Positions 1 to 13,704 are shown, counted from the first letter of the stretch. The stretch is DNA of 32,000 nucleotides from Thermoproteus tenax Kra 1 (GCF_000253055.1 NC_016070.1:390001-422000); one strand, 5' to 3'. A program made the numbers and translations. Notes: generated by a model not told the origin, from the sequence alone.

Positions 1-102
1 ATAAAACTTGGTGATACTTCTAATATTAAGACATTTAAAGCAAAAATAGATCAAGTAAAGATACTGCACAATAGAGTAGGTCTCTCTCTGCCCCCGGATC
101 CC

Positions 103-1452
103 ATGGGCCATATTAGGACGAGGATCAAGGAGGCTATTAAAAACAATAGAAATGTGAGAATGGCCATAGAGGTCTGCGTCCACTGCGGAGTCTGTCTCGA
201 TAACTGTCCCACGTATGTACGAACTAAGGATATCTATAACTCGCCGGTGGGCCGCGCCGAGCTCATAAGAGCTTTTCTGAAGGCGGATTCAGTCAGCGGA
301 AGGCTCTTCGGCAAGGCTGTCGGCGCAGTCAAACTCACTGAGGAGTACCTCGAGAAGATCTATACATATTATTATCAATGTCTGGAGTGTAGAAAATGTG
401 CATATTCATGTCCCTTCGGCATCGATCAAGCAGACGTCACAAGGCTAGTGAGGGAGATAATGTACGAGGCCGGCATAGTATCGCGCTACGTGGCGACAGT
501 GATAGACGCAGTGGAGAGGACTGGGACCAACTTAGGCATGAAACCTGTGGCCGTTATCAAATCCATCACCTTCGCAGCTGGGGAGATTAAGGAGGAGAAA
601 AAAGTCGACGTAATATATTACATCTACCGAGATGATACAAACGAGCTCAAGAAGTATATCGGCGACAAGGAGGTGGCATCTTGGAAGCTCGACGCCGTGC
701 CGCCCGATGAGAGGCCAGAGGCCCTTTTGGTACCGCCCTCCGCAGATTTCTTTACTAACATAGAGACTCTTAAGGGGTATATGCTGTTCCTCCATCTTAT
801 CGGCGTTAAGTATGCCTTTTCTACGGAGATGGCCGAGTTGGCAAACTTCGGTCTGTTTGTCAGCGAGAGACACCTCCACTATATAGGCATGAAGGTAGTT
901 AACGCCGCTCTTAAACTGGGGGTGAAGACAGTGATAGCGGGCGAGTGCGGCCACGGATGGAGGGCGTTCAAGAACTACACGGGCCCAGAGCTTGAAAGAA
1001 GGGGCATGAAGACGCTACACATATTCCATCTAGTGATAGATGCTATAAAGAGGGGGGCGATAAAGCTCAACCCCGACGCCAACGGCGATATAGTATACAC
1101 CTTCCAAGACTCGTGCAACTACGCGAGAGGCGGAGACTTGACGGAGGAGCCCCGATTCATTATGAGACACGTGGTTAAGAAGTACACAGAAAGTCCGCAC
1201 AATAGGGAAAAAACGTGGTGTTGTGGAGGCGGAGGCGGCTTATTGACCGACGAGCTTCTTCCTCTAAGAATACAATATGCCAAAAATTGGTATGAAGATG
1301 CGCTACAGGTCGGAGCGAGCCACGTCGTGAGGGCCTGCGCCATCTGCAAAGCTCAATTAAGCCATACGATCCCATATTTGAATAAAGAGTATAAAAGAGA
1401 GATCACATACAGCGGCCTAATGGACTTAGTCTATAGGGCCCTCGTCGTCTAA
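103..1452 (+). CDS. HdrD/DsrK/GlpC-family iron-sulfur oxidoreductase (two 4Fe-4S ferredoxin motifs plus CCG cysteine-rich domain)
   Basis: 449-aa ORF. Two CxxCxxCxxxCP motifs (CVHCGVCLDNCP, CLECRKCAYSCP). C-terminal WCCGGGGG...CAICK resembles the CCG domain of heterodisulfide reductase D-type proteins. No hydrophobic spans seen. Confidence 0.75.
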   Translation: MGHIRTRIKEAIKNNRNVRMAIEVCVHCGVCLDNCPTYVRTKDIYNSPVGRAELIRAFLKADSVSGRLFGKAVGAVKLTEEYLEKIYTYYYQCLECRKCAYSCPFGIDQADVTRLVREIMYEAGIVSRYVATVIDAVERTGTNLGMKPVAVIKSITFAAGEIKEEKKVDVIYYIYRDDTNELKKYIGDKEVASWKLDAVPPDERPEALLVPPSADFFTNIETLKGYMLFLHLIGVKYAFSTEMAELANFGLFVSERHLHYIGMKVVNAALKLGVKTVIAGECGHGWRAFKNYTGPELERRGMKTLHIFHLVIDAIKRGAIKLNPDANGDIVYTFQDSCNYARGGDLTEEPRFIMRHVVKKYTESPHNREKTWCCGGGGGLLTDELLPLRIQYAKNWYEDALQVGASHVVRACAICKAQLSHTIPYLNKEYKREITYSGLMDLVYRALVV

Positions 1453-1784
1453 GGTTTTACATAAATATAACCTTGTTTGACCAATTCAACTATTTTTACG
1501 ATGCCTGCTGGAACTATCTCGGCGTTTTCGTGGACGTCGCGGGGGTCTATCCCGAGGTTTCTGAGGGAGTTGTTACACACATAGAACTTTACGCCACGCC
1601 TCGCGAGGGCGGCTATCCTTTCTCTAAACGGCGAGCCCTTGACCATGTGCTTCACCGCCAGTCCGTTCGCCACGACGGCTATATCGGCGTTTCCCACTGC
1701 GGCCAAGAAGTTCTCCGCATTTGAGAGAGCGATGGAGAGAGGGACCGGATCGTCGCTATCAACGTGCAACAGCAGTTTCTCCAT
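1449..1784 (-). CDS. DsrE/DsrF-like family protein (COG1416-like small sulfur-relay fold)
   Basis: 111-aa ORF. The pattern LLHVDSDD...VVANGLAV...FYVCNNSL...IVPAGIV resembles the DsrE-like alpha/beta fold with a conserved Cys (VCNNS). An A/T box lies about 20 nt upstream of the ATG. Confidence 0.6.
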   Translation of the reverse strand: MEKLLLHVDSDDPVPLSIALSNAENFLAAVGNADIAVVANGLAVKHMVKGSPFRERIAALARRGVKFYVCNNSLRNLGIDPRDVHENAEIVPAGIVKIVELVKQGYIYVKP

Positions 1785-1787
1785 GAG

Positions 1788-1800
1788 ATTGTGTCACAAT
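1788..1800. promoter_or_regulatory. 13-nt perfect palindrome ATTGTGTCACAAT between the A/T box and start codon of the DsrE-like gene
   Basis: Read directly. Arms ATTGTG and CACAAT flank a central T. It lies 4 nt upstream of the ATG at 1784 (minus strand). Confidence 0.5.
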
Positions 1801-1826
1801 AAAAATTCTAGCTCTGTCTCCAGAGC
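1801..1826 (-). terminator. Hairpin (GCTCTG-tctc-CAGAGC) followed by a T5 run on the minus strand, downstream of the 82-aa gene
   Basis: 6-bp inverted repeat at 1811..1816 and 1821..1826 with a 4-nt loop. Plus-strand AAAAA at 1801..1805 gives T5 on the transcript strand. Oligo-T is the usual archaeal termination signal. Confidence 0.4.
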
Positions 1827-1830
1827 GAGA

Positions 1831-2079
1831 TCATAAAACTATAACTGGAAGGCCAGCGCACCTCTCTAAAAACGACAGAGGGCCGGCCGAGCCAAAGCCC
1901 GGCGGGACTTGTATTGGAATATATGTACAAATGCGGACCTCGCCTAGCCTTCTTAGCCTTTCGCCATGCCTCAAGAGACCTCTCCCTCTATACGCCAGAT
2001 AGATAACGTCGGGGGATAGAGCTTCGAGAACCTTTAGCACTCTGTCGTCATCTGATAGAACCAACGCGCATAGTCTCAT
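1831..2079 (-). CDS. Small protein translationally coupled to tusA, tentatively DsrH/TusB-like
   Basis: 82-aa ORF. Its ATG overlaps the tusA stop (ATGA, 2076..2079). The N-terminal pattern M-LCALVLS...DVIYLAYRG resembles TusB/DsrH, but similarity was judged by eye only. Confidence 0.45.
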   Translation of the reverse strand: MRLCALVLSDDDRVLKVLEALSPDVIYLAYRGRGLLRHGERLRRLGEVRICTYIPIQVPPGFGSAGPLSFLERCAGLPVIVL

Positions 2080-2306
2080 CTAGTTCTCCTTATCAGAAAC
2101 CTCATCCAACCATCGCCGACCTCCTCAAACGACAGAAGCTGGTTCTTAGTGAACCTGCACCACGCAGGTATATCGTCTCTGGCGCAAGCGTCATTGGTGA
2201 GCACCTCCAAGATGCCTCCCACCGGCACCTCATCTATCGCCCTTTTGAGCTCTATAGGGCTCAAGCAGTGGGCTCCAGATATTTTTATAGTTTTATATAC
2301 TTCCAT
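2076..2306 (-). CDS. tusA: TusA/SirA-family sulfur carrier protein
   Basis: 76 aa. It aligns by eye to E. coli TusA: active-site region GAHCLSPI (TusA has CPEP), then GGILEVLTNDACARDDIPAWC and a C-terminal FLIRR. Confidence 0.8.
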   Translation of the reverse strand: MEVYKTIKISGAHCLSPIELKRAIDEVPVGGILEVLTNDACARDDIPAWCRFTKNQLLSFEEVGDGWMRFLIRRTR

Positions 2307-2412
2307 AGACTTTTGTTTATATATATAAATTTAAAAATTATTAACGACTCAGTGTTAGTACCGTCTTTATGCGAGGGCTTCCGAGCCGCCGGGCGCGCGG
2401 AGGTCCGCAAAG

Positions 2413-2955
2413 ATGGCGTTAGAGTTATATATGGAATTTAGCCGGCTAAGCGTGTATATAGGCGTTATCTCTGACACACACGACGATGCGAGGGCCGTGA
2501 GGGCCGCGGGGGAGGCCTTTAGGAGGGCCGGAGTAGCCGCCGTTGTACATGCGGGCGACTGGACGTCGCCCTTCAGCATGCTGAAGCTGAGGAGGGCCCT
2601 CGGAGAGGGCGTGCCTATCTACACCGTCTTTGGCAACAACGATGGGGATAGATACACCGCGGCCAAAAGGGCGGCCGACGCTGGTGTGGAGGTGTTGGGC
2701 GAGGCCGGCATTATAGTACTGGGCGGACGGAAGATAGGAGTATATCACGGCACGGCTCTACTGTTGGTAGAGGCTATGGCTAAATCTGGGATGTTCGACG
2801 TAGTGATATACGGCCACACCCACAGAGTCGACATCAGAAGGGTCAATGGCACGTTGGTGGTGAACCCCGGCGAGGCTTGCGGGTGCGCCGAGGAGAAAAA
2901 GACGGCGGCTTTGCTCAATTTGAACACTCTCGAGGTCGAGCTTCTGGACCTCTGA
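2413..2955 (+). CDS. YfcE/MJ0936-family metallophosphoesterase
   Basis: Motifs ISDTHDD, HAGDW, GNNDGD, YHGT and GHTH appear in canonical order. The true start is probably GTG 2452 (MYIGVISDTHD), about 22 nt downstream of the A/T box TTATATATGG at 2424..2434. Confidence 0.85.
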   Translation: MALELYMEFSRLSVYIGVISDTHDDARAVRAAGEAFRRAGVAAVVHAGDWTSPFSMLKLRRALGEGVPIYTVFGNNDGDRYTAAKRAADAGVEVLGEAGIIVLGGRKIGVYHGTALLLVEAMAKSGMFDVVIYGHTHRVDIRRVNGTLVVNPGEACGCAEEKKTAALLNLNTLEVELLDL

Positions 2956-2957
2956 GG

Positions 2958-4838
2958 CTAGGGGAAAATGTGTATGACCGGCCTTGTGTACACCTCCCAA
3001 TTCCCGGTCTTCGGGTCGCGCCTGGCGTTGACGAAGACATGCCAGTTCTGTTCGTCCAGCGCCGGATGGTCTGCGTTGATATAGTAGCCGGGGAATCTGG
3101 TCTCCTTCCTATGCATCATGGATATCACTACAGCCCGCGCCACCAACAGCCTGTGGTAGAACTCCCAGACTCTCAACAGCTCGTGCAAACTGGCGGCCCC
3201 TGCGAATCTGAAGTCCTCCTCCAACATGCCCAGTAGCTCCCACGCTCTGTTCAACATATAGTCGTTCGTCAGATAGAACATCCCCCAACCTGCCGCATAC
3301 TCGTCCATAATCTTCTGGAGGCGCACCAACAATTGGTACCAGTTGAGGTAGTTGGGGTGTATCTCGAACCAGTTGGTCGTGTACGTCTCAGGCGTTGTGG
3401 TCAACGGCTTGTTCTTGTGATACCACTCTAGAGGTCTGAAGACGGTCTCCTTCATCCTCTCTATTGTGTCGTTGCTTATTGTAGGTTTGTAGTCTTTAGC
3501 CTGAGTGAGGACATATCTGGCAGCCGACTTGCCCGCTATCCTCCCCTCCGTTAAAGAGCCCGACGAGAACTTGTGGCCCGAGGCGCCCACGGTGTCGCCT
3601 GCGCCGAACAGCCCCTCCACAGTCAACATGCGGTTGGGCCCCCACTTGTACTCAGAGGGCGCTATGTCCGCAGGGCCCGAGGCCCACATTCCGCTGGGAG
3701 AGGCGTGGCTGCCTTGGACGTAGGGCTCGGTGGGCACTAGCTCGGAGGGCCTCTTCTCTGGGTGGATGTTCTGGCCCGCCCAGAGGAACGCTTGAGTTGG
3801 AGTCATGTCCAAATAGTCCTCGAACAGCAAGTGTATGTCTTCGTCGGTCTTGAGTCTCTCCTGCGTCTGCATTATGTCGGGCCCTCTGCCGTCTCTCAAG
3901 TTTCTCTCGGTCACAAGCACTCTGAGCAAAGTGGGCGTCGGCTTTGCTTCCGCGTATTTGCCGTAAAGCTTCTTGAACTCCTCGCGGGCCTCGTCCGGCA
4001 GTGGCTCCCACTGTCTTCCGTAGACGTCCGTGGACCTCATCCTGAATAACAAATAGGGGAATCCGACGGGGCCGTAGCCGTCCTTAAATCTGACCACGAT
4101 CAGTCTGGCCTCCATTGAGGTCGTCTCTGCCCCCGCCATAATGGGTATGGCGTAGGCGCTGCCGGAGGCCCACGTGGGGTACCAAGTCCTGCCCAAGCCC
4201 TCCCCAGTGGACCTCGGCCTGTAGACCAAGGAGGCGCCGCCGGCCGCCACGATGACCGCCTTGGCTCTGAAGACGTAGAAGGTCCCGTCTCTGACCCCGA
4301 ACCCCACGACGCCGGCGATCCTGTTGGGCACCGTTTCGTCGAGCAGAGGATGTGTCACAAAGACTCTCTCGTAGATCTCGTCGGCGGACTTGGCGCAAGC
4401 CTCGGCGACGATGGCCTTATACGACTCGCCGTGTATCGGATGTTGCCATCTGCCCGTGCGCAGATACTTGCCCGTCTTCGGGTCCCTCCATATGGGGAGC
4501 CCCCACGAGTCTAAGAGTTTGACCGTCGACGTCATATGTCTAGCTATGTCGTAGACCAAATCCTCCCTCACTATTCCGAAGAACTCGTTGCGCACGTAGT
4601 AGACGAAGTCCTCAGGCTTGGGGTCGTCCGGCTCCTCCGTGAACGCGCCCAAGTTGACAGCAGATAGGCCCATGCCTACGGCGCCCGACTTCTCCAACTT
4701 GGCTTTCTCCACCAACGTGACCTTACACCTCCCTCTACACCAGTACTTCGCCTCGAAGACGGCGCCGCATCCGGCCATCCCGCCTCCCACGACCAAGATG
4801 TCGGTGTCTACTACCTTGGTGGGCGGATTGAGGGACAT
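2958..4838 (-). CDS. aprA: Adenylylsulfate (APS) reductase alpha subunit
   Basis: 626 aa. FAD-binding N-terminus DILVVGGGMAGCGA. Length and overall pattern fit AprA. It starts 1 nt after the aprB stop, in the aprB-aprA order typical of apr operons. Confidence 0.93.
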   Translation of the reverse strand: MSLNPPTKVVDTDILVVGGGMAGCGAVFEAKYWCRGRCKVTLVEKAKLEKSGAVGMGLSAVNLGAFTEEPDDPKPEDFVYYVRNEFFGIVREDLVYDIARHMTSTVKLLDSWGLPIWRDPKTGKYLRTGRWQHPIHGESYKAIVAEACAKSADEIYERVFVTHPLLDETVPNRIAGVVGFGVRDGTFYVFRAKAVIVAAGGASLVYRPRSTGEGLGRTWYPTWASGSAYAIPIMAGAETTSMEARLIVVRFKDGYGPVGFPYLLFRMRSTDVYGRQWEPLPDEAREEFKKLYGKYAEAKPTPTLLRVLVTERNLRDGRGPDIMQTQERLKTDEDIHLLFEDYLDMTPTQAFLWAGQNIHPEKRPSELVPTEPYVQGSHASPSGMWASGPADIAPSEYKWGPNRMLTVEGLFGAGDTVGASGHKFSSGSLTEGRIAGKSAARYVLTQAKDYKPTISNDTIERMKETVFRPLEWYHKNKPLTTTPETYTTNWFEIHPNYLNWYQLLVRLQKIMDEYAAGWGMFYLTNDYMLNRAWELLGMLEEDFRFAGAASLHELLRVWEFYHRLLVARAVVISMMHRKETRFPGYYINADHPALDEQNWHVFVNARRDPKTGNWEVYTRPVIHIFP

Positions 4839-4839
4839 A

Positions 4840-5349
4840 TTACTTCCTCTTGTAGTGTTCTAGTATTTCGGGCGGAGGAGATGAGTATTGGGGCGGCCCC
4901 TTGTAATATTTCAACTCCTTCGGCCTCGGGAGCTCTCTGAAGCCTGTCCATTCTGGGCTGTCTTCACAACAGAGGAGCTCTGAATCTAAGTCGGACCTCT
5001 CCGGGAAGTCCTTTGCGCCCTTTGCGGAGCCCCACGGCGTCGTCCTTATGGGTATGGCGAAGTCCTTCACAGTTCCATCTCTGAAGACCAGTCTCCAATA
5101 TATCACGTTCTTTTTAGTGTCGCGGACTACCCCCACCTTTACGCCGAGCGGGACGAAATCTGCGTAGGGCCTCACATCCACAGCATGTTCAGGGCAGTAC
5201 TTGACGCAGTTCATGCACTCCGCGCAGCTGATAGGATCGGCGTTGAAAGCCTTTCTTGTCTTGGGGTTGAACTGCATGTTATCGGCGGGACATATATCGA
5301 CACATTTGCCGCAACCTTTACACAAAGAAGCATATACAAATGTTGGCAT
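4840..5349 (-). CDS. aprB: Adenylylsulfate (APS) reductase beta subunit
   Basis: 169 aa. N-terminus MPTFVY..CKGCGKCVDICP...CAECMNCVKYCP (two 4Fe-4S clusters), then DVRPYADFVPLG and a Trp/Pro-rich tail as in AprB. Confidence 0.93.
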   Translation of the reverse strand: MPTFVYASLCKGCGKCVDICPADNMQFNPKTRKAFNADPISCAECMNCVKYCPEHAVDVRPYADFVPLGVKVGVVRDTKKNVIYWRLVFRDGTVKDFAIPIRTTPWGSAKGAKDFPERSDLDSELLCCEDSPEWTGFRELPRPKELKYYKGPPQYSSPPPEILEHYKRK

Positions 5350-5435
5350 AGAGAGAGATTATCCCGTATTAATAAACATTATGTATTCCAACCATTGAAG
5401 AATACTTTAATACCCTCTCTATCAAAAATCTCAAT
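5350..5435. promoter_or_regulatory. Divergent AT-rich promoter region between aprB and the membrane protein gene
   Basis: GTATTAATAAAC (5366..5377) is centred about 22 nt from the aprB ATG. ACTTTAATACC (5404..5414) is centred about 27 nt from ATG 5436. Confidence 0.45.
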
Positions 5436-6320
5436 ATGTCGCAAGTTATTTCATGTGGTTCATATCAGTGCATCGCCTCTCCAGTTGACTGGACAGCTAT
5501 CGACGTCCTAGCTTTTTTGACAGTAATTTGGATAATAGTGACGTTTATATACAAAGGTTTACGTCAGTATAAAGTTATGCGCTATCCTCAGATCCAGATG
5601 GTGATCCCATATGCCCGGTGGGAGGCAGCATTAGTAAAAGAGAAGCCGCCCATCAGAGCCGGCGCCGCCGTGAAATACTTCTTTGTTACATTGTTTAAAG
5701 ACGTATTGGCCATGGGCATACTGAAATGCGAGGCAGGTTTGACGGACGCCGAGATTGTGAGGACTGGGAAGGCCAAGAGGGCCGCCAAACTGATGATCGT
5801 GTGGGGCTTCATATTCGCCGCAATCTCTACTACGCTCGCCTATCTGACCTTCCCCCACAACGAGATAGTATTGAACCTCACGAACCCAGCCCGCGTGTTC
5901 GGCATGATCGGCGGCGTTCTGATGATAGTAGGCTCTCTGCTCTGGCTTTCAGTGAGATATAAGGAGGTGAACTACAGAGGCTGGTGGCATTGGTTGGGGG
6001 CTGAGTATCTGCCCTTCCTAGTCCTTCTGATAGGTATATCTGGCTTCGTGCTACAAGCTGCACTTTTGGCCTACGCGGCGTCTCCTGACAGTACGGCGGC
6101 CGTGGCCTTCTTGTGGTTTGCCGTACACCTCCACGCCATACCGGTGGCCCTCTTCTTCTGGGCCTTCTTCTGGACAAACGCAGACCACATAATCTACGCG
6201 TTCCTCTGGAGGATCCAGGAGTACGCAGACAAAGAAATAGCGGGCGCCATGACTAGGCTTCCGCCGACGAGTATACCTCCGCTCAATAAATCGGGCAAAG
6301 AAATACAGCCTGGCTATTAA
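5436..6320 (+). CDS. Polytopic membrane protein (about 6 TM), possible NarI/DsrM/HdrE-like or AprM-like redox anchor
   Basis: 294 aa with six long hydrophobic spans. The last helices carry AVHLHAIP...(x12)...ADHIIY, reminiscent of the heme-b ligand helix of NarI-type proteins. It is divergent from aprBA. Family membership is not verifiable by eye. Confidence 0.6.
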   Translation: MSQVISCGSYQCIASPVDWTAIDVLAFLTVIWIIVTFIYKGLRQYKVMRYPQIQMVIPYARWEAALVKEKPPIRAGAAVKYFFVTLFKDVLAMGILKCEAGLTDAEIVRTGKAKRAAKLMIVWGFIFAAISTTLAYLTFPHNEIVLNLTNPARVFGMIGGVLMIVGSLLWLSVRYKEVNYRGWWHWLGAEYLPFLVLLIGISGFVLQAALLAYAASPDSTAAVAFLWFAVHLHAIPVALFFWAFFWTNADHIIYAFLWRIQEYADKEIAGAMTRLPPTSIPPLNKSGKEIQPGY

Positions 6321-6355: not shown

Positions 6356-7702
6356 ATGCTAATTGAACCACATGGAGGAAAACTAGTTTATCAAGTGGCT
6401 GAGCCAGAGAAGGCGGCGGGGCTGCCGAGGCTCGAGATTAAGCCGACTCTGGGGCCCGACGGCGCCCCCATCAGGAACCCGTACCGCGAAGTTGTGTCGA
6501 TAGCAATGGGCTTCTTCAGCCCGGTGGATGGCTTTATGACTAGGAACGAGGTGGAGAGCGTCCTTAGGGAGAGGAGGCTTCTCAGCGGCTGGCTGTTCCC
6601 GTTCCCGCTTGTGTTCGACGTAGACGAGGAGGATCTGAGGAGGGCCGGCATTAAGGAGAAGGACGCAGTGGCGCTCACGCTGAAGGGCAAGCCCCTCGCC
6701 CTTATGCAGGTGGAGGAGATATACAAGCTGGGCGATAGGAAGGAGCTGGCCGACGCGGTCTTCGGCACGCCGGAGAAAAACGGGGAGGTGGTGAAGAGGA
6801 GGTTCGACGAGAAGCACCCCGGCTGGCTGATATACCGCTCTCTAAAGCCGGTGGCGCTCGCGGGGAAGGTCTGGCTGTTGGGCCAGCCCAAGTTCAGAGA
6901 GCCCTACTCCCGCTTCTGGATGCCGCCCGCCGCCTCCCGTAAATACATAGAGGGGAAGGGGTGGAAGATCGTGGTTGCCCACCAGACGAGGAACGTCCCC
7001 CACATAGGCCACGAGATGTTGATGAAGAGGGCTATGTTCGTAGCAGGAGGCGAGAGGCCCGGCGACGCCGTGTTGGTTAACGCCATAATTGGAGCCAAGA
7101 GGCCCGGCGACTATGTGGACGAGGCGATTCTGGAGGGCCACGAGGCTTTAAACAAGGCCGGCTACTTCCACCCTGACCGCCACGTGGTGACCATGACGCT
7201 GTGGGACATGCGCTATGGGAACCCGCTCGAGTCCCTTCTACACGGCATCATTAGGCAGAATATGGGGGCGACGCACCACATGTTCGGTCGCGACCACGCG
7301 GCGACGGGCGACTACTACGACCCCTACGCCACCCAGTACCTCTGGACTAGAGGCCTTCCGAGCTACGGCCTGAACGAGCCGCCCCATTTGACGGACAAGG
7401 GCTTGAAGATAAGGCCTGTCAACATGGGCGAGTTCGCATACTGTCCCAAGTGCGGCGAGTATACATACTTGGGGATGTCCTACGGCGGCTACAAGGAGGT
7501 CGCCCTCTGCGGCCACACGCCGGAGCGAATATCGGGCAGCTTCTTGAGGGGGCTCATAATAGAGGGGCTTCGGCCGCCCAAAGTAGTCATGAGGCCTGAG
7601 GTCTACGATATCATCGTTAAATGGTGGCGCGTCTACGGCTATCCCTTCGTCACCGATAAGTATCTTAAAATTAAAGAGGAACAACTGGAGATAGAGATAT
7701 GA
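6356..7702 (+). CDS. sat: Sulfate adenylyltransferase (ATP sulfurylase)
   Basis: 448 aa. N-terminal EPHGGKL. Active-site HQTRNVPHIGHE (QxRNxxHxGH) and GRDHAA. C-terminal CPKC-x18-CGH putative zinc site. Confidence 0.92.
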   Translation: MLIEPHGGKLVYQVAEPEKAAGLPRLEIKPTLGPDGAPIRNPYREVVSIAMGFFSPVDGFMTRNEVESVLRERRLLSGWLFPFPLVFDVDEEDLRRAGIKEKDAVALTLKGKPLALMQVEEIYKLGDRKELADAVFGTPEKNGEVVKRRFDEKHPGWLIYRSLKPVALAGKVWLLGQPKFREPYSRFWMPPAASRKYIEGKGWKIVVAHQTRNVPHIGHEMLMKRAMFVAGGERPGDAVLVNAIIGAKRPGDYVDEAILEGHEALNKAGYFHPDRHVVTMTLWDMRYGNPLESLLHGIIRQNMGATHHMFGRDHAATGDYYDPYATQYLWTRGLPSYGLNEPPHLTDKGLKIRPVNMGEFAYCPKCGEYTYLGMSYGGYKEVALCGHTPERISGSFLRGLIIEGLRPPKVVMRPEVYDIIVKWWRVYGYPFVTDKYLKIKEEQLEIEI

Positions 7703-8043
7703 CGTACAAGATCGGCCTCTTGATAGATGAGAAGAGGTACGAGGCCATAAAGAACTTGCCGATCTCGGAGAGGCTGAAGTCGATGTTCGGAGGCGAGATA
7801 AAGATACTTGAGCTAGATGTTGACGACGATGTGGCCAAGAGGATACTGGCCGAGTTCCCAGCGGCCAGAGTGGACTCGAGGGGATTCTTGGAGGATCTGC
7901 CGGTGGCCTTCAAGAGGGCTCTCTTCGATGCCGTGGTCAAGACGGGCAGCGTGGGCAGAGAGGCCTTCGATGAAGTGTTCAGACATATAGAGGAGATAAG
8001 GGAGGCCGCCAAGCGCGAGAAAGAATACATTCCGCCGCCATGA
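7699..8043 (+). CDS. Hypothetical acidic protein translationally coupled to sat
   Basis: 114-aa ORF. Its ATG overlaps the sat TGA (ATGA at 7699..7702). Codon usage is coding-like. No recognisable motif. Confidence 0.55.
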   Translation: MTYKIGLLIDEKRYEAIKNLPISERLKSMFGGEIKILELDVDDDVAKRILAEFPAARVDSRGFLEDLPVAFKRALFDAVVKTGSVGREAFDEVFRHIEEIREAAKREKEYIPPP

Positions 8044-10416
8044 TTAGGCCCTACGCAGACTCAACGCGTTCAACGTAACCGAGATGCTGCTCAGAGCCAT
8101 CGCGAGGCCTGCCAGCTCCGGTCTCAAAACCACGGGGTATAGGGCGCCCGCAGCCACTGGAATAAGGACTATGTTATATATAAAGGCCCAAATAATATTA
8201 AATTTTATATTTTTAACAATTTTTTGAGACAATTTGAATACTTCTATTATTTTATCTACGCCTCCCCTCAGAAGTATTATATCCCCTGACTCCTTCGCTA
8301 CGTCAGTTCCTGTGCCGACCGCTATTCCCACGTCGGCTACTGCTAGGGCCACTGCGTCGTTTACGCCGTCTCCCACGAAGGCAACTGCCCCTCTCTGCCT
8401 CAGCCGCTCGACCACCTTGGCCTTCCCCTCAGGGTCGAGATCGGCGTAGACTTCGTCTATGCCCAAGGCGCGCGCGACCGCCCGCGCTGGCCTCTCGCGA
8501 TCTCCGGTGATTATCACCGGCTCTATGCCGCGGCTCTTCAGCCACCTCACGGCGTCGGGCGCCTCTTGGCGTATGTAGTCGCCCACGGCGATAGCGCCTC
8601 TCACCTCGTTCTCCACTACTACATAGACTGTAGTGTATCCCCTCTCGCCCATCTCCTCCGACCACCTCTTGATGCTCTCGGGGAGGGCTGCCGCCATGCC
8701 GGCGACTATCCTCTCGTTTCCCACGGCGACAGCCTTGCCGCGCACTCTGCCGTAGACGCCGGCTCCAGGTATAGTGTCGAAGAGCTCTGGCTCAGACAGC
8801 TCGAGCCTCCTCTCTCTGGCGTACTCCACTATGGCTGCTCCTATGGGATGCTCCGATTTGTTCTCCACGGACGCTGCCAGGGCAAGCGCCTCATCGTCGC
8901 CGAGGGCAGCTACCACCTTGGGCCTCCCCACAGTGAGGGTCCCCGTCTTGTCGAAGCCGACTATGCGGGCCTCCAAGAGCCTCTGCAACGCCTCGGGCCT
9001 CCTTATGAGCACGCCCTTCTCCGCCGCCCTCCCCACTCCGACTACCACAGACAACGGAGTGGCCAGCCCCAAGGCGCATGGACACGCTACGACTAACACA
9101 GATGCTGCAAACATCAACGCCTTGCTGACGTCGGCAGTCGCCAGATACCATCCGGCGAAGGTCAGAGCTGCGGCCGCAACGACGACCCAGGCGAAGGCGC
9201 CGGCAACCCTGTCCACAAAATATTGCACGGGCAACTTGGCGCCCTGGGCAGTCCTCACGAGCTTCACTATCTGCGATAGGAGCGTGTGTCTCCCGCTTCT
9301 GGTGGTCCTCACGGCTAGGTAGCCCTTGGTCAGAAGAGAGCCCGCCAAGACTACGTCGCCCTTCCTCTTCTCGGCCGGCATAGGCTCGCCCGTGAAGGCC
9401 GACTCGTCCACGAGGCCTGCGCCGTCCTCGACTATGCCGTCTACGGGCACTTTCTCGCCCTGTTTGACCACTACGATCTGGCCCGGCCTCACTTGGGCGG
9501 CCGGCACCTCTCCGCCGTCAATGAGCCTCGCCCTCTCGGGCTGGAGCTGCGCCAGCCTCCTCACAGCCTCGCCAGTCTTGATCCTCATATTGGCCTCTAT
9601 ATACCTCCCCAACAGCACCAAGGTTATCACGGTAGTGGATGCCTCGAAGTAGACCGGGCCGCCGCCCATCAACGAATAGAGGCTGTAGAGATAAGTTGAG
9701 AGCGTGCCTAGGGCGACCAGAGTGTCCATGTTAGCAGTTCTGTTCTTGAGGGCTCTGTAGGCCCCCTTTATGAACCTAAGACCGGAATAGAACTGGACGG
9801 GCGTAGCTAGCGCCAGCCCGAGCCAGGCAGACGCAGTTGGGAGCCTCAGGCCGGCGGCGGAGAGCGCCATCATGGCCAAGAGGGCCGCGGCGGGGCCCGC
9901 TGCGACGAGCAGCCGCCTCCTCAGATCGGCTCTGTCAAGCTCAACTACCCTTCTGTCTACATCGAAGTCTACCTCGCCCGTCTTAACCTCCAGAACCTCG
10001 TAGCCTGCCTCGTCGAGCCTCTTGGCCAGATCCTCTGGCGCTATCTCCAAGGGGTTGAACTCTACGGCGACAGTCCTGGAGGTCGGATTTACCCTTACGT
10101 TGAAGATGCCCCACGTCGATAGCAGCTCCTCAATATGCCGCGCCTCCTCGGGCTCCATGGCCTTCAAGACCAAGTGTGCCTCCTCTCTGTATACATCGTA
10201 GCCGGCCCTCCTCACAGCCTTCAGCAGATCGCCGTAGTTGAGCTTGGAGGGATCAGCCACAATCTTGGCCTCGTCGCCCGCTAGTGAGGCCTCGGCGTGT
10301 AGGACTCCCGGCACGGACAAAAGCGCCTTCTGTACAGTAAGAGTACACGTGGCGCAGTGCATGCCGATTATCTTCAGAGTGGACTCTCTGCCGCGCTCAA
10401 ACTTGAGTCTGATCAC
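8044..10416 (-). CDS. copA: Copper-translocating P1B-type ATPase
   Basis: 790 aa. N-terminal HMA domain GMHCATC. Also CPC (VVACPCALGLATP), DKTGTLT, TGD and GDGVNDA. GTG start. Confidence 0.93.
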   Translation of the reverse strand: MIRLKFERGRESTLKIIGMHCATCTLTVQKALLSVPGVLHAEASLAGDEAKIVADPSKLNYGDLLKAVRRAGYDVYREEAHLVLKAMEPEEARHIEELLSTWGIFNVRVNPTSRTVAVEFNPLEIAPEDLAKRLDEAGYEVLEVKTGEVDFDVDRRVVELDRADLRRRLLVAAGPAAALLAMMALSAAGLRLPTASAWLGLALATPVQFYSGLRFIKGAYRALKNRTANMDTLVALGTLSTYLYSLYSLMGGGPVYFEASTTVITLVLLGRYIEANMRIKTGEAVRRLAQLQPERARLIDGGEVPAAQVRPGQIVVVKQGEKVPVDGIVEDGAGLVDESAFTGEPMPAEKRKGDVVLAGSLLTKGYLAVRTTRSGRHTLLSQIVKLVRTAQGAKLPVQYFVDRVAGAFAWVVVAAAALTFAGWYLATADVSKALMFAASVLVVACPCALGLATPLSVVVGVGRAAEKGVLIRRPEALQRLLEARIVGFDKTGTLTVGRPKVVAALGDDEALALAASVENKSEHPIGAAIVEYARERRLELSEPELFDTIPGAGVYGRVRGKAVAVGNERIVAGMAAALPESIKRWSEEMGERGYTTVYVVVENEVRGAIAVGDYIRQEAPDAVRWLKSRGIEPVIITGDRERPARAVARALGIDEVYADLDPEGKAKVVERLRQRGAVAFVGDGVNDAVALAVADVGIAVGTGTDVAKESGDIILLRGGVDKIIEVFKLSQKIVKNIKFNIIWAFIYNIVLIPVAAGALYPVVLRPELAGLAMALSSISVTLNALSLRRA

Positions 10417-10649: not shown

Positions 10650-11156
10650 CTATTGCTCCGAGACTTCGTACCTTCTAATGACCTCCTTTTCCCGCTCCGA
10701 GATCTTGTGAGCCGCGTACTTCTCCTTGACCACGGAGCCGCCTATGTTCCTCGCTCTATAAAACGCCACTTCGTCGGGCGTCTCCCTCACTCCGTATCTC
10801 ACCTCTACGTCGAAGGCCGCGCCCTCCAACTCGTCCAACGCGAAGTACACTGGAGTGTGTAGGACGGCCAAAGCGCCGGCGGCCCTCCTCAAGATATCCA
10901 GCGCCCTCTCGGCTAAGCCCTCCCGGAGGGGTCCCATTATGAGCACGGGGTTCTCCACAGCGTCCAGAGCCTCTCCGTATGCGACGGCGATGGGCCTTGC
11001 CCCTCTGGCCTCGGCCAGAGCTATTATCGCTGATGCCATGGCAATGCAACTGGGCGTCTCGTCGTAGACCACTGTGAACTTGTCCACGTCTTTCAACATA
11101 TATTTGTCGTACCATTGGGCCAACAATGCCCTATACTCGAGTTCAGCTCCTTCCAT
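10650..11156 (-). CDS. Hypothetical protein
   Basis: 168-aa ORF with coding-like composition and no motif recognised. Its stop abuts the YHS gene stop (TAGCTA). Confidence 0.55.
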   Translation of the reverse strand: MEGAELEYRALLAQWYDKYMLKDVDKFTVVYDETPSCIAMASAIIALAEARGARPIAVAYGEALDAVENPVLIMGPLREGLAERALDILRRAAGALAVLHTPVYFALDELEGAAFDVEVRYGVRETPDEVAFYRARNIGGSVVKEKYAAHKISEREKEVIRRYEVSEQ

Positions 11157-11432
11157 AAATCATCCAAAATTTGACCTTAAAAATTAAAAATAGTGAATTT
11201 TAGAAAACCTCAAGCCCTATTAAGGCTTTTTCTCGGCCTTTTTCTTCTCCTTCTCAACCTTCTCTGGAGGCGCACACATGAGGATGGAATAAAAGCTACC
11301 ATATATAAACATTTTGCTATATGTTTTTATTGCAGTCTAAATTTTTGTATAAAATTACTTATTTTTCTTACACTATTATTCTTATTCTTTAATTTAATCT
11401 CAATATTATAATAATATTTTTTATTTAATTAA

Positions 11433-12113
11433 TTAATTTTCATCGTATATATTTTTTATATATTTTCCATGCCACCAGTGGTATATCACTTGGCCGTAGG
11501 GGCTGACGCTTATCATTTGCATATCGCCGTCCGGCGTCTTGAAGTGGAACGTATAATATCCTCTGAAGGGATAGGCTTCGGTTATAACCGACCCTGGAAA
11601 GTTGTGCGACAGCCATTCCTCTGCTATCCTCTCTGCGACCGCCTCGTTGCCGGGGTCTCTAAAGCGCCACATCATAGATTGAGGCTCGGGATGGACTACG
11701 CCATTAGGGTAGACCAGTAGCTCTTCGATTCCTATATTCTGTCTTTTATCCCAGATTACTACATAATAGTTATTTGAATATTTTTCTATTAATTTGATTT
11801 CTGCAGAAGGATAATATTTTTGTATATAAACTAAATAATGATTCACATAGTTTAAAATATTGTCATCGTTAACATATGTAGCATTGCCGCTATACAGTCC
11901 AGAGGCCATGGGACAGGCCGTGGGAAATACTGAACGGCCTTGGGCGTTGTTCAAAGGGACCCAGACGGAGGGCGTGGTCCACATCTCTATGAATATCCAT
12001 GCCGATATTCCCCCTATGGCTATTATTAGCGCCAGCGCTGTTGCCAGTAGCTTGTCCATACGTGCTGATTTCACCCGCTTAGATAAAGATTTAGTGAAAA
12101 AAGACGACTTCAC
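11433..12113 (-). CDS. Membrane-anchored protein with two PepSY-like repeats
   Basis: 226 aa. Basic N-terminus followed by a TM anchor (LLATALALIIAIGGISAWIFI). There are two segments with the PepSY-like pattern, AEIKLIEKYSNNYYVVIW...LLVYPNGVV and AERIAEEWL...YYTFHFKTPDGDMQMISVSPYGQVI. The gene is AT-rich. The start could instead be M19. Confidence 0.55.
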   Translation of the reverse strand: MKSSFFTKSLSKRVKSARMDKLLATALALIIAIGGISAWIFIEMWTTPSVWVPLNNAQGRSVFPTACPMASGLYSGNATYVNDDNILNYVNHYLVYIQKYYPSAEIKLIEKYSNNYYVVIWDKRQNIGIEELLVYPNGVVHPEPQSMMWRFRDPGNEAVAERIAEEWLSHNFPGSVITEAYPFRGYYTFHFKTPDGDMQMISVSPYGQVIYHWWHGKYIKNIYDEN

Positions 12114-12171
12114 GGTTTCATCTAGGTGAAACTTATCGTAAACTCTTTATTAATCCTCTTCAATTTCGGCA

Positions 12172-12615
12172 GTGAAGAGGACAGAGATATACGCGCTAGT
12201 CCTCTCCATGGTGCTCTCATTCGCTACTGCGTTTCTAATAGATCTCTATCACGTCGAATATATGAGATATATGATGCCAACGGCTCCCTTCCCTACTCCC
12301 TTATTCTTTATCTCGTGGCTCATCCTAGCCACGCTATTTATGATAGTCGGGCTCTGGCTCACAAGAGACACGACTAAGTCCGAAGAGGTGAATATAGAGG
12401 TGGTCAGACGGTTGCTCCCCGATCTGGAGAGGAAGGTTCTTGACTATATAATTAAAAACGGCGGCGAGGTGAGCCAGTCCGACATAGCTAGGTCGCTGAA
12501 GTTGAACAAGGTTAGAACGTGGAGAGTTGTACAAAGGTTGCAACAGAAGGGATTAATAGAAGTTTATAAAGCCAAAGGAAGAAATATTGTTAGAATAAAA
12601 ATTAAAGAAAATTGA
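12172..12615 (+). CDS. Membrane-associated winged-helix transcription regulator (COG2512-like)
   Basis: 147 aa. Two N-terminal TM helices, then LERKVLDYIIKNGGEVSQSDIARSLKLNKVRTWRVVQRLQQKGLIEV (wHTH). GTG start. Confidence 0.7.
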   Translation: MKRTEIYALVLSMVLSFATAFLIDLYHVEYMRYMMPTAPFPTPLFFISWLILATLFMIVGLWLTRDTTKSEEVNIEVVRRLLPDLERKVLDYIIKNGGEVSQSDIARSLKLNKVRTWRVVQRLQQKGLIEVYKAKGRNIVRIKIKEN

Positions 12616-12621
12616 TATTAT

Positions 12622-13200
12622 TTATTGACGTTTTGCAATAATATGTAATATACCGGGCGCCGTTATAACCTCTTGGACCTTGTACTCAAATTCCTCCAGC
12701 AGACACCTCGCGGCGGCCGCGTTGGCCTCGACAGACTCCAGGCTGTATCCTATCCCCACTATATCTATCTGGACTTCGTCTTGTTGTATCTTCACGTCGA
12801 ACTTCTTGGCCGGCACTATCTTGGCCAGATAGGGGACGAAGCTTTTGACGGCCTCTAGATCGCGGAACACCGCCTTTATGTAGCCCGCCAACATCTTGCC
12901 TGCATCGCACCACACCTTGAGGATAGTCTCTTTGTCAACCCTATAGACGTCGCTTATCAGTTTGTCCAGAACTCTTCCAGGTATCGGCACTATCTCGAGC
13001 TCCATCATTATTCTGTAGAAATACGCGAGCTCCCTCACTTGGGCGGGGCTGTAGCCGGATTTGATGAGCTCCAGGCCCAGCCTTAACAGCTCGTTGGCTA
13101 ACGCGTACTGAGTCATGCCGGACGAGTCAGCCACATTGGCCAACTCCTCTGCGACGTCCCTAGCTACTGCCAGACTGACTCTGTCTTTTCTAGTGCTCAT
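12622..13200 (-). CDS. Hypothetical protein with an N-terminal ribbon-helix-helix-like segment
   Basis: 192 aa. The N-terminus DRVSLAVARDVAEELANVADSSGMTQYALANELLRLGL fits a beta-alpha-alpha RHH pattern. An A/T box lies about 22 nt upstream. Confidence 0.55.
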   Translation of the reverse strand: MSTRKDRVSLAVARDVAEELANVADSSGMTQYALANELLRLGLELIKSGYSPAQVRELAYFYRIMMELEIVPIPGRVLDKLISDVYRVDKETILKVWCDAGKMLAGYIKAVFRDLEAVKSFVPYLAKIVPAKKFDVKIQQDEVQIDIVGIGYSLESVEANAAAARCLLEEFEYKVQEVITAPGILHIIAKRQ

Positions 13201-13275
13201 ACATCAAATTATCTACAGGTGTATATATTCATAACAGCCGTAATGGGCCCTATATGTAACGATAGACAGGCCCGC

Positions 13276-13704
13276 CTAGAACGCAATTAGTCTTCCATCG
13301 GCGACCTCCTCCAGGAATGTGTACATAGATGTCACGCGCTCCACGAGGCCCGCCGTCTTGAACTCCTCCTCCCCCACGCCGAAGATCCTCGCGGCGGTCT
13401 CACAGGCAATGACCCTGGCCCCCAACGCCTTGGCGGACTCAAAGAGCTCTCTCCAAGTCACTCGTAGCTCCCTCATCTTAGCGGCCTCGGGCGAATCCGG
13501 CTCGGTTGCCCTTCCAGCGAATGCTAACACGGCTCTGCCTGTCACAAACACCACGACCTCGTTGCCCCTAGCGACCTCAGTGGCCACATAGGTGCCTGCG
13601 ACGTAGAGATCGATTGGATCGTCCGAAGACAAGATAACTCCCACCTTCATGCTACGAGCTTCCGGCGGCTCCTCTAGCTTGCGACGGGCGTCTTCCAGGC
13701 CCAT
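13276..13704 (-). CDS. DsrE-like protein (COG2044 'peroxiredoxin-like' DsrE family)
   Basis: 142 aa. MKVGVILSSDDP...VVVFVTGRAV...VIACETAARIFG fits the DsrE-like fold with a conserved Cys-Glu. The start may be M19 (13650). Confidence 0.6.
   Translation of the reverse strand: MGLEDARRKLEEPPEARSMKVGVILSSDDPIDLYVAGTYVATEVARGNEVVVFVTGRAVLAFAGRATEPDSPEAAKMRELRVTWRELFESAKALGARVIACETAARIFGVGEEEFKTAGLVERVTSMYTFLEEVADGRLIAF

Follow-up and report, generated by a model that had tools for sequence, protein, structure and literature searches.

A membrane protein of the AprM/QmoC superfamily as a candidate quinone link of APS reductase in Thermoproteus tenax

Described membrane partners of APS reductase and the T. 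tenax locus

In sulfur-oxidising bacteria such as Allochromatium vinosum, Pelagibacter and members of the Burkholderiales aprM, which codes for a small protein with five predicted transmembrane (TM) helices and no soluble domain, always adjoins the genes of the adenosine 5'-phosphosulfate (APS) reductase, aprB and aprA (order aprMBA). AprM was described as having no similarity to known domains. QmoC, for which the same role between the quinone pool and Apr is proposed, joins a comparable membrane domain to an HdrC-like N-terminal domain with two [4Fe-4S] clusters. For Caldivirga and Pyrobaculum it was stated that the qmo genes are absent and that the electron donor of Apr was not known (PMC2211403), and later work noted the absence of "AprAB's interaction partner" and regarded these archaea as sulfite-only reducers (PMC8477390, PMC10504309). 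In this article we have analysed a 32-kb stretch of DNA from Thermoproteus tenax Kra1 (the window; coordinates count from its first letter), and we focus on a membrane protein of 294 amino acids (aa), annotated only as hypothetical, whose gene lies between aprB and sat. This protein is probably a divergent archaeal member of the AprM/QmoC membrane-domain group and would link AprBA to the quinone pool.

The central part of the locus is arranged as follows.

2958..4838, minus strand: aprA, APS reductase alpha subunit (TIGR02061, 738 bits, over the cut-off)
4840..5349, minus strand: aprB, APS reductase beta subunit (TIGR02060, 145.5 bits; APS-reductase_C; motif CAEC)
5350..5435, no strand: divergent AT-rich spacer of 86 nt, with TATA-like boxes (tattaataaa; ctttaatacc) facing aprB and the membrane gene
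5436..6320, plus strand: aprM-like gene, 294-aa protein with five TM helices (NCBIfam qmoC membrane half, E = 5.7e-8)
6356..7702, plus strand: sat, ATP sulfurylase (NF003166, 472 bits; Pfam ATP-sulfurylase and PUA_2)
7699..8043, plus strand: small DUF6955 protein, 114 aa (PF22271, E = 2.8e-29), with a 4-nt overlap with the end of sat

This layout agrees with an earlier note on the same DNA, made from the sequence alone: aprB and aprA are 1 nt apart, sat lies about 1 kb from aprB, and the 86-nt spacer separates aprB from the divergent membrane gene, which is followed on its own strand by sat after a gap of 35 nt. Judged from its boxes, the spacer may carry the promoters of both sides. Pfam scans of the 29 largest open reading frames (ORFs) of the window revealed no Qmo- or HdrA-like flavoprotein, which bears out the statement of the earlier note that QmoA and QmoB are missing here, and the larger ORFs in the rest of the window were only housekeeping and metal-transport genes. 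Flavoproteins of these types (qmoA, qmoB or HdrA-like) were likewise not found in related loci, whereas QmoC is encoded together with QmoA and QmoB.

Homology, conserved synteny and candidate ligands of the membrane protein

In place of the six TM helices counted in the earlier note, five TM helices and a C-terminal amphipathic helix are predicted in the AlphaFold 2 model of the 294-aa protein (mean predicted local distance difference test score, pLDDT, 75.9), and the hydropathy count of TM helices is likewise 5. According to the positive-inside charge distribution, the loops 44-107 and 174-190 are on the cytoplasmic side together with the C-terminal tail, with the N-terminus predicted outside and the C-terminus predicted in the cytoplasm. 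The protein has no Cys-cluster motif and no Fer4 match in Pfam or NCBIfam and, in contrast to QmoC, it is devoid of the HdrC-like N-terminal domain.

In the NCBIfam search the protein was aligned to positions 153-353 of the 360-position qmoC model, its membrane half, with 32.6 bits against a cut-off of 300 bits, and it also matches TcuB. An exhaustive HMMER search, in which the family profile was run against 1.8 billion representatives, yielded 77 proteins of two kinds: QmoC-type proteins of about 400 aa, in which an Fe-S domain is joined to a membrane domain, and membrane-only proteins of 230-290 aa matching the same QmoC region. The bacterial AprM and QmoC sequences used for comparison came from a scan of genome contigs with an AprA alignment, where one Thermoproteales locus was among the matches listed and the others were from Pelagibacter, Dehalococcoidia and similar organisms; in Pelagibacter, Hyphomicrobiaceae and Burkholderiales the membrane ORF preceding aprB was taken as AprM. 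Bacterial AprM matches the qmoC and TcuB models in the same model region as the 294-aa protein. In profile-profile comparison (hhalign) the T. tenax family (A1) was matched to the aprM-position and QmoC-type relatives with 99.9% probability (E = 4.3e-33), to QmoC with 97.1% (E = 6.7e-11) and to bacterial AprM with 93.5% (E = 2.3e-7, 221 columns), while the aprM-position and QmoC-type relatives were matched to bacterial AprM with 97.4% (E = 9.4e-12). A hidden Markov model of AprM also recognised the Thermoproteus ortholog, with E = 1.6e-6 in a small local ORF set. To judge from these profiles, AprM, the membrane domain of QmoC and the T. tenax protein share one superfamily, in which the T. tenax protein most probably represents a divergent AprM from archaea.

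The structural comparison led in the same direction. The best Foldseek match in the PDB was the membrane region of Mycobacterium smegmatis EtfD (9ojn, probability 1.0, TM-score 0.47), which has five TM helices as well, although the whole EtfD protein (1042 aa) also contains fused Fe-S and CCG domains, serves ETF rather than Apr and is only 14% identical to our protein. NarI was the next match (probability 0.69-0.85). The relationship to NarI, and with it to the di-heme cytochromes b of the NarI/DsrM/HdrE group (Nitrate_red_gam, PF02665), is at the superfamily level only, through the fold and a transitive profile match, since the 294-aa protein has no direct match to this Pfam family and lacks the His pair of TM2. 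Membership of the protein in the NarI/QmoC superfamily is supported by NCBIfam, hhalign and the fold, in line with the interpretation in the earlier note. A different function, transport of sulfate, sulfite or an APS-related compound by a protein co-expressed with sat, would be compatible with the position of the gene 35 nt upstream of sat on the same strand and with the lack of a Pfam match, but every detectable kin of the protein is a redox membrane subunit (QmoC, TcuB, NarI, EtfD, AprM), transporter folds reached a probability of 0.20 or below in the fold search against 1.0 for EtfD, and TauE-type exporters are separately encoded near several related loci, so that we hold a transporter to be extremely unlikely.

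A connection with Apr comes from gene neighbourhood. Close homologs of the membrane protein occur only in Pyrobaculum and Thermoproteus (59-70% identity), with one further relative of 34% identity, and those with a name are called "hypothetical protein". All of the contexts found through the membrane protein had the arrangement of T. tenax, in which aprB and aprA are transcribed in one direction and the membrane gene, sat and DUF6955 in the other. A metagenome scan with the alignment of the membrane family added 50 further loci; 60 membrane-side loci were scored, and 49 of them had enough flank to judge whether aprB is adjacent (at L115 and L120 aprB was masked by an overlapping stop-to-stop ORF, and both were counted as aprB-bearing). 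The membrane gene was directly adjoined by aprB in all 49. It was divergent from aprB, as in T. tenax, in 39, and in the remaining 10, which are hot-spring loci with 26-31% identity, the membrane gene, aprB, aprA, sat and DUF6955 follow each other in one direction, which is the classical aprMBA order. Four more distant membrane-only relatives (P0156, P0154, P0162, P0161) are each encoded immediately upstream of aprB-aprA on the same strand, and one of them, P0162, whose aprM-position neighbours are aprB-aprA, is from Nitrososphaerota.

Compact operons of an aprM-like gene with aprB, aprA and sat were also seen in two Nitrososphaerota metagenome-assembled genomes (MAGs; L146, L147), and an operon of the same kind but without sat on a soil metagenome contig (L093). 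AprM-type Apr systems appear to be more widespread in archaea than the accessible literature indicates. Genes of the TauE family (sulfite exporter type) adjoin archaeal clusters of aprM-like, aprBA and sat genes (L001, 7799-8662; L144, 52-2231; L148, 3572-4770), accompanied by DUF1634 in L144 and L148, which fits sulfite or sulfate trafficking at such loci.

The residues of interest in the 294-aa protein are M93, C98, K118, H233 and H251, together with the tail RLPP...GKEIQPGY. In the family alignment, which extends down to 34% identity, H233, H251 and K118 are invariant. The HLH...DH pattern that the earlier note had recognised in the last helices is real, with a spacing of x16 instead of the x12 given there (HLH-x16-DH), and H251 follows H233 at a distance of 18 residues. 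In QmoC their counterparts are the two conserved His of the last helix (VH...SKFAH), which show the same spacing, and in NarI, through the profile of the relatives, H187 and H205, which we take from the NarGHI structure to be heme ligands. Two invariant His are kept at the heme-ligand positions of the last QmoC/NarI helix. H251 is His in every family compared, and it corresponds to the His of the SKFAH motif that is invariant in AprM (WSKFAH in AprM, WTNADH in the T. tenax type), whereas the mid-helix His corresponding to H233 has been lost from bacterial AprM. With QmoC the protein also shares a DxL..x..C(E) motif before TM2.

A second common element with AprM, absent from QmoC, is the cytoplasmic tail (R/N)LPxP...Y, which reads RLPP...GKEIQPGY-COOH in T. 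tenax and NLPxPAD...HY-COOH in bacterial AprM; this tail could be considered as a candidate AprBA-docking element. The T. tenax type differs from AprM in an extra cytoplasmic segment of roughly 60 residues after TM1.

The proposed link to the quinone pool and the state of AprBA

We propose that the 294-aa protein would dock AprBA at the cytoplasmic face of the membrane and that electrons would be exchanged through it between the [4Fe-4S] clusters of AprB and the quinone pool, with a heme b at H251, possibly together with K118, as the putative cofactor. A plausible template, by analogy, is EtfD, which has five TM helices and a single bis-His heme b (ligands H78 and H241), with a [4Fe-4S] cluster at a distance of about 7 A and menaquinone at 4-5 A (PMC13083937), and the order AprB cluster, heme, quinone might follow the same principle.

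As for the direction of the electron flow, three lines of background have to be considered. In bacteria AprM has been reported from sulfur oxidisers; the archaeal-type AprA is sister to the AprA of AprM-type sulfur oxidisers in published trees (PMC10504309 supplement); and the reported growth of T. tenax on sulfate was re-evaluated, these archaea now being treated as sulfite reducers (PMC10504309). We therefore lean, speculatively, to a flow from sulfite and AMP to quinone, as in the AprM-bearing oxidisers, and Sat would then make ATP. It was also described that the AprB of the Caldivirga-Pyrobaculum group and that of the AprM-type oxidisers are both without the Qmo-docking loop (PMC2211403).

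Several observations weigh against this assignment. The 294-aa protein had no Pfam match at E <= 0.01, and a PDB sequence search with the T. tenax family profile gave none either. The link to bacterial AprM is remote, with about 18-20% identity, and was found by profile-profile comparison only. Since the T. tenax gene points away from aprBA and in the same direction as sat, it need not be transcribed together with aprBA. QmoC, bacterial AprM, the archaeal forms with co-directional genes and most of the intermediates have a His at the start of TM2. Its place is taken by the invariant Lys K118 in proteins of the T. tenax type and in their nearest relatives, and canonical bis-His ligation of the proximal heme is consequently impossible. 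Neither this His nor that of SKFAH, both invariant in bacterial AprM, is an experimentally established hallmark of AprM. In T. tenax AprB, Ala43 (CAEC) stands where most lineages have the electron-relay residue Trp-B48 (CWEC). The same Ala was described in the Pyrobaculum type by Meyer and Kuever 2008, who took it as a hint of a non-functional Apr in Pyrobaculum (PMC2211403). The role of AprM itself as membrane anchor and quinone link was, furthermore, only postulated (PMC3779200).

The replaced ligands raise the question whether the protein is a cofactor-less anchor or scaffold for AprBA, perhaps also for Sat, or merely provides a quinone site, with no heme relay. Just two of the four conserved His columns of QmoC, the presumed ligands of two hemes b, are kept in the T. 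tenax type; the TM2 position, whose His pairs with the C-terminal His in the relatives, is K118, there is no His 10 residues past it, and the fourth column is Met (M93, at least 90% conserved). Lys and Met, however, are both able to ligate heme iron, H233 and H251 are invariant down to 34% identity exactly at the NarI/QmoC ligand positions, and the closest solved fold, EtfD, carries one heme b. Although AprM itself was described without a recognisable cofactor site (PMC3779200), we find such a scaffold rather unlikely.

The state of AprBA bears on a further possibility, namely that Sat-AprBA is decaying in Pyrobaculum and Thermoproteus and survives as a relic, the membrane gene then having no Apr function. 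Besides the Ala in place of Trp-B48, which T. tenax AprB shares, a missing Asn in the Pyrobaculum Apr and a frameshifted aprBA in P. aerophilum were reported (PMC2211403), and the present view of these archaea as reducers of sulfite, not sulfate (PMC10504309), would agree with a relic. Among the Pyrobaculum/Thermoproteus loci, however, the median ratio of non-synonymous to synonymous substitution rates (dN/dS) is 0.08 for aprA, 0.10 for sat, 0.11 for aprB and 0.20 for the membrane gene, which indicates purifying selection on all four; the ORFs are intact, the gene order is conserved in about 50 loci, and AprA scores over the equivalog cut-off. Decay of the locus is very unlikely on this evidence. 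Ser was observed at the Trp-B48 position in one related locus and in some Dehalococcoidia. A co-variation of the Trp-to-Ala change in AprB with the His-to-Lys change in the membrane protein was considered and dropped as evidence, because L001 pairs Trp with Lys.

The neighbouring DsrK, accessory genes and significance

The earlier note had assigned the membrane protein a partner, an HdrD-like CCG protein of 449 aa, and suggested that the two form a split two-subunit module between the quinone pool and AprAB. This protein and the other neighbours of the Apr locus are encoded as follows.

1..1452, plus strand: dsrK, CCG/Fe-S protein, 5'-truncated by the window edge (Pfam Fer4_8 and CCG; NCBIfam DsrK, 303 bits)
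1449..1784, minus strand: DsrE-like protein, 111 aa (Pfam DsrE, E = 2.8e-11), convergent with dsrK with a 4-nt overlap
1831..2079, minus strand: 82-aa ORF, doubtful as a gene (without a match in Pfam, NCBIfam or PHROGs)
2413..2955, plus strand: YfcE-type metallophosphoesterase (Metallophos_2, E = 2.7e-35; TIGR00040)
8044..10416, minus strand: copper-type P1B ATPase, 790 aa (HMA and E1-E2 ATPase domains)

The length of 449 aa arises because the window begins inside the gene. The frame can be read without a stop from nt 1 onwards, so that the ATG at 103 is an internal codon, and the first ORF of the window shows 100% identity to P0031, a T. tenax "(Fe-S)-binding protein" of 493 aa, whose true start lies 30 nt before the window. 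The motifs named in the earlier note are present, with two CxxCxxCxxxCP (CVHCGVCLDNCP and CLECRKCAYSCP) followed by WCCGGGGG and CAICK. HdrD has two CCG domains and is paired with HdrE in the methanogen-type heterodisulfide reductase. The T. tenax protein contains a single CCG stretch (Pfam, residues 332-419) beside Fer4_8, and in an NCBIfam search of the protein without its first 44 residues DsrK was by far the best match (303 bits, E = 3.1e-90; the cut-off of 400 bits was not reached), while the HdrD model was absent from the best 25 families and the HdrB and HdrC models scored about 25 bits. Its identification as HdrD was rejected on these grounds.

A NarI-type gene ends 40 nt upstream of the true start of the CCG gene on the same strand, just outside the window. 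On the metagenomic contig from which this upstream sequence was taken (L009, differing from the window at 5 of 1550 nt), the C-terminal 124 residues of its product match Pfam Nitrate_red_gam with E = 1.3e-21, and the two genes have the classical dsrM-dsrK order. The part of Suppl. Table 1 of Neukirchen et al. 2023 (PMC10504309) that covers T. tenax gives the order DsrB-DsrA-DsrA-DsrB-DsrM(WP_014126357)-DsrK(WP_014126358)-AprA(6363)-AprB(6364)-Sat(6366); in the same part, gene 6365, which is the 294-aa membrane protein, carries no label, and the gene was accordingly not recognised as AprM in this DiSCo-based table. The CCG protein thus already has both a membrane partner and an identity. In Pyrobaculum calidifontis its ortholog (80% identical) is located inside a dsrA-dsrB-dsrC-dsrN cluster, with a NarI-type gene about 1.7 kb downstream. 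We conclude that the CCG protein is the DsrK of a separate, quinol-linked DsrMK module and not a subunit of the Apr link; a further DsrMK is encoded at a second dsr locus of T. tenax.

The split module can be judged on this basis. In its favour, neither gene is more than 6 kb away from aprBA in T. tenax, NarI/QmoC-like membrane proteins are the partner type of CCG proteins, and 17 of the 60 related loci carry a DsrK-like gene in the flanks, at a distance of about 6 kb or less from the membrane gene. This last frequency fits neighbouring dsr and apr clusters and not an obligate pair: the CCG gene is absent from L001, L005 and most of the other loci while the membrane gene is always with aprB, and relatives of the membrane protein form aprM-aprB-aprA operons in which there is no CCG gene. 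Together with the DsrM gene directly upstream of the CCG gene, the published DsrM-DsrK assignment and the dsr cluster of P. calidifontis, this largely refutes the split module, and we give it very little credence. Of the earlier proposal the layout and the motifs stand, and so does the membrane protein, which is a credible link between quinone and AprAB by its synteny and its QmoC/NarI kinship; its CCG partner does not. The statement that these two were the only other redox-looking genes proved wrong as well, since the NarI-type gene just outside the window and the DsrE-like gene have to be added. The arrangement, which had been called undescribed for Apr, is not wholly so, as the membrane protein is a remote AprM homolog; an aprM in the genome, named in the earlier note as a counter-sign, is in effect present as this very gene.

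Around dsrK, the DsrE-like gene converges over the dsrK stop and is followed by the 82-aa ORF; no counterpart of either was detected in the related loci at E <= 1e-5. The dsr cluster of P. calidifontis (L010) contains a different DsrE-like gene and is flanked by two pairs of SQR/FCSD-like flavoprotein and HMP-domain genes (119-1704 and 11603-13173), one of which is inserted between dsrK and the NarI-type dsrM.

Two other neighbours recur with the Apr genes. DUF6955 directly follows sat in 42 of the 60 related archaeal loci, and the combination sat-DUF6955-aprBA is also present in five loci (L015, L016, L018, L020, L026) of sulfate-reducer lineages or unclassified MAGs; among the carriers of DUF6955 after sat are Archaeoglobaceae, Desulfofundulus, a MAG from Clostridiales and another from an unclassified archaeon. 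The protein gives the impression of an uncharacterised Sat/Apr accessory factor with wide conservation. The YfcE-type Mn-phosphoesterase gene beside aprA recurs in 22 of the 60 loci, and a Metallophos_2 gene follows aprA in the distant soil aprMBA locus as well (L093, 8295-8993). The enzyme might handle pyrophosphate, AMP or APS-related phosphoesters. The P1B ATPase gene comes next after the sat-DUF6955 pair, in the opposite orientation, and a connection with the sulfur genes is improbable. Farther on, a low-GC stretch (10650-13704, GC 0.39-0.46 against about 0.57 elsewhere) holds four ORFs, for which no Pfam or PHROGs match was found, and a MarR/HTH regulator; a foreign origin or fast evolution could account for it. 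No tRNA was detected anywhere in the window by a tRNA scan.

With dsrMK adjacent to the Apr locus, DsrMK could, speculatively, consume the quinol that would be produced if the 294-aa protein passes electrons from AprBA to the quinone pool. A wider scheme for the Thermoproteaceae can be drawn from here, which we regard as possible but less likely than not: sulfite and AMP would be converted to APS by AprBA, with the electrons going to the quinone pool through the AprM-like protein and Sat yielding ATP, and DsrMK would re-oxidise the quinol and drive the reduction of sulfite by DsrAB/DsrC, the two branches, encoded by one dsr-apr island, forming a quinone-mediated loop of sulfite (or thiosulfate) disproportionation in archaea that are at present classed simply as sulfite reducers without an Apr partner. 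In the same tentative scheme AprM-type coupling would be ancestral for the archaeal-type Apr, and the proximal heme would have an unusual His/Lys ligation (H251/K118).

No AprM homolog named as such in Thermoproteales was found in our full-text literature searches, whose coverage is incomplete, so that a mention is possible. The membrane gene represents a new, divergent variant of the AprM/QmoC membrane domain, the HdrD-like part of the earlier proposal being already explained as DsrK. The presence of an AprM/QmoC-like membrane protein beside every Thermoproteaceae aprBA examined provides a concrete and testable candidate for the partner of Apr in these archaea. At the same time AprM is placed in the superfamily of the QmoC membrane domain, TcuB, EtfD and NarI, and the archaeal and the AprM-type Apr lineages are linked through their membrane partner. 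This bears on whether Sat-Apr is reductive, oxidative or disproportionating in these archaea, and on the evolutionary assembly of sulfate metabolism.

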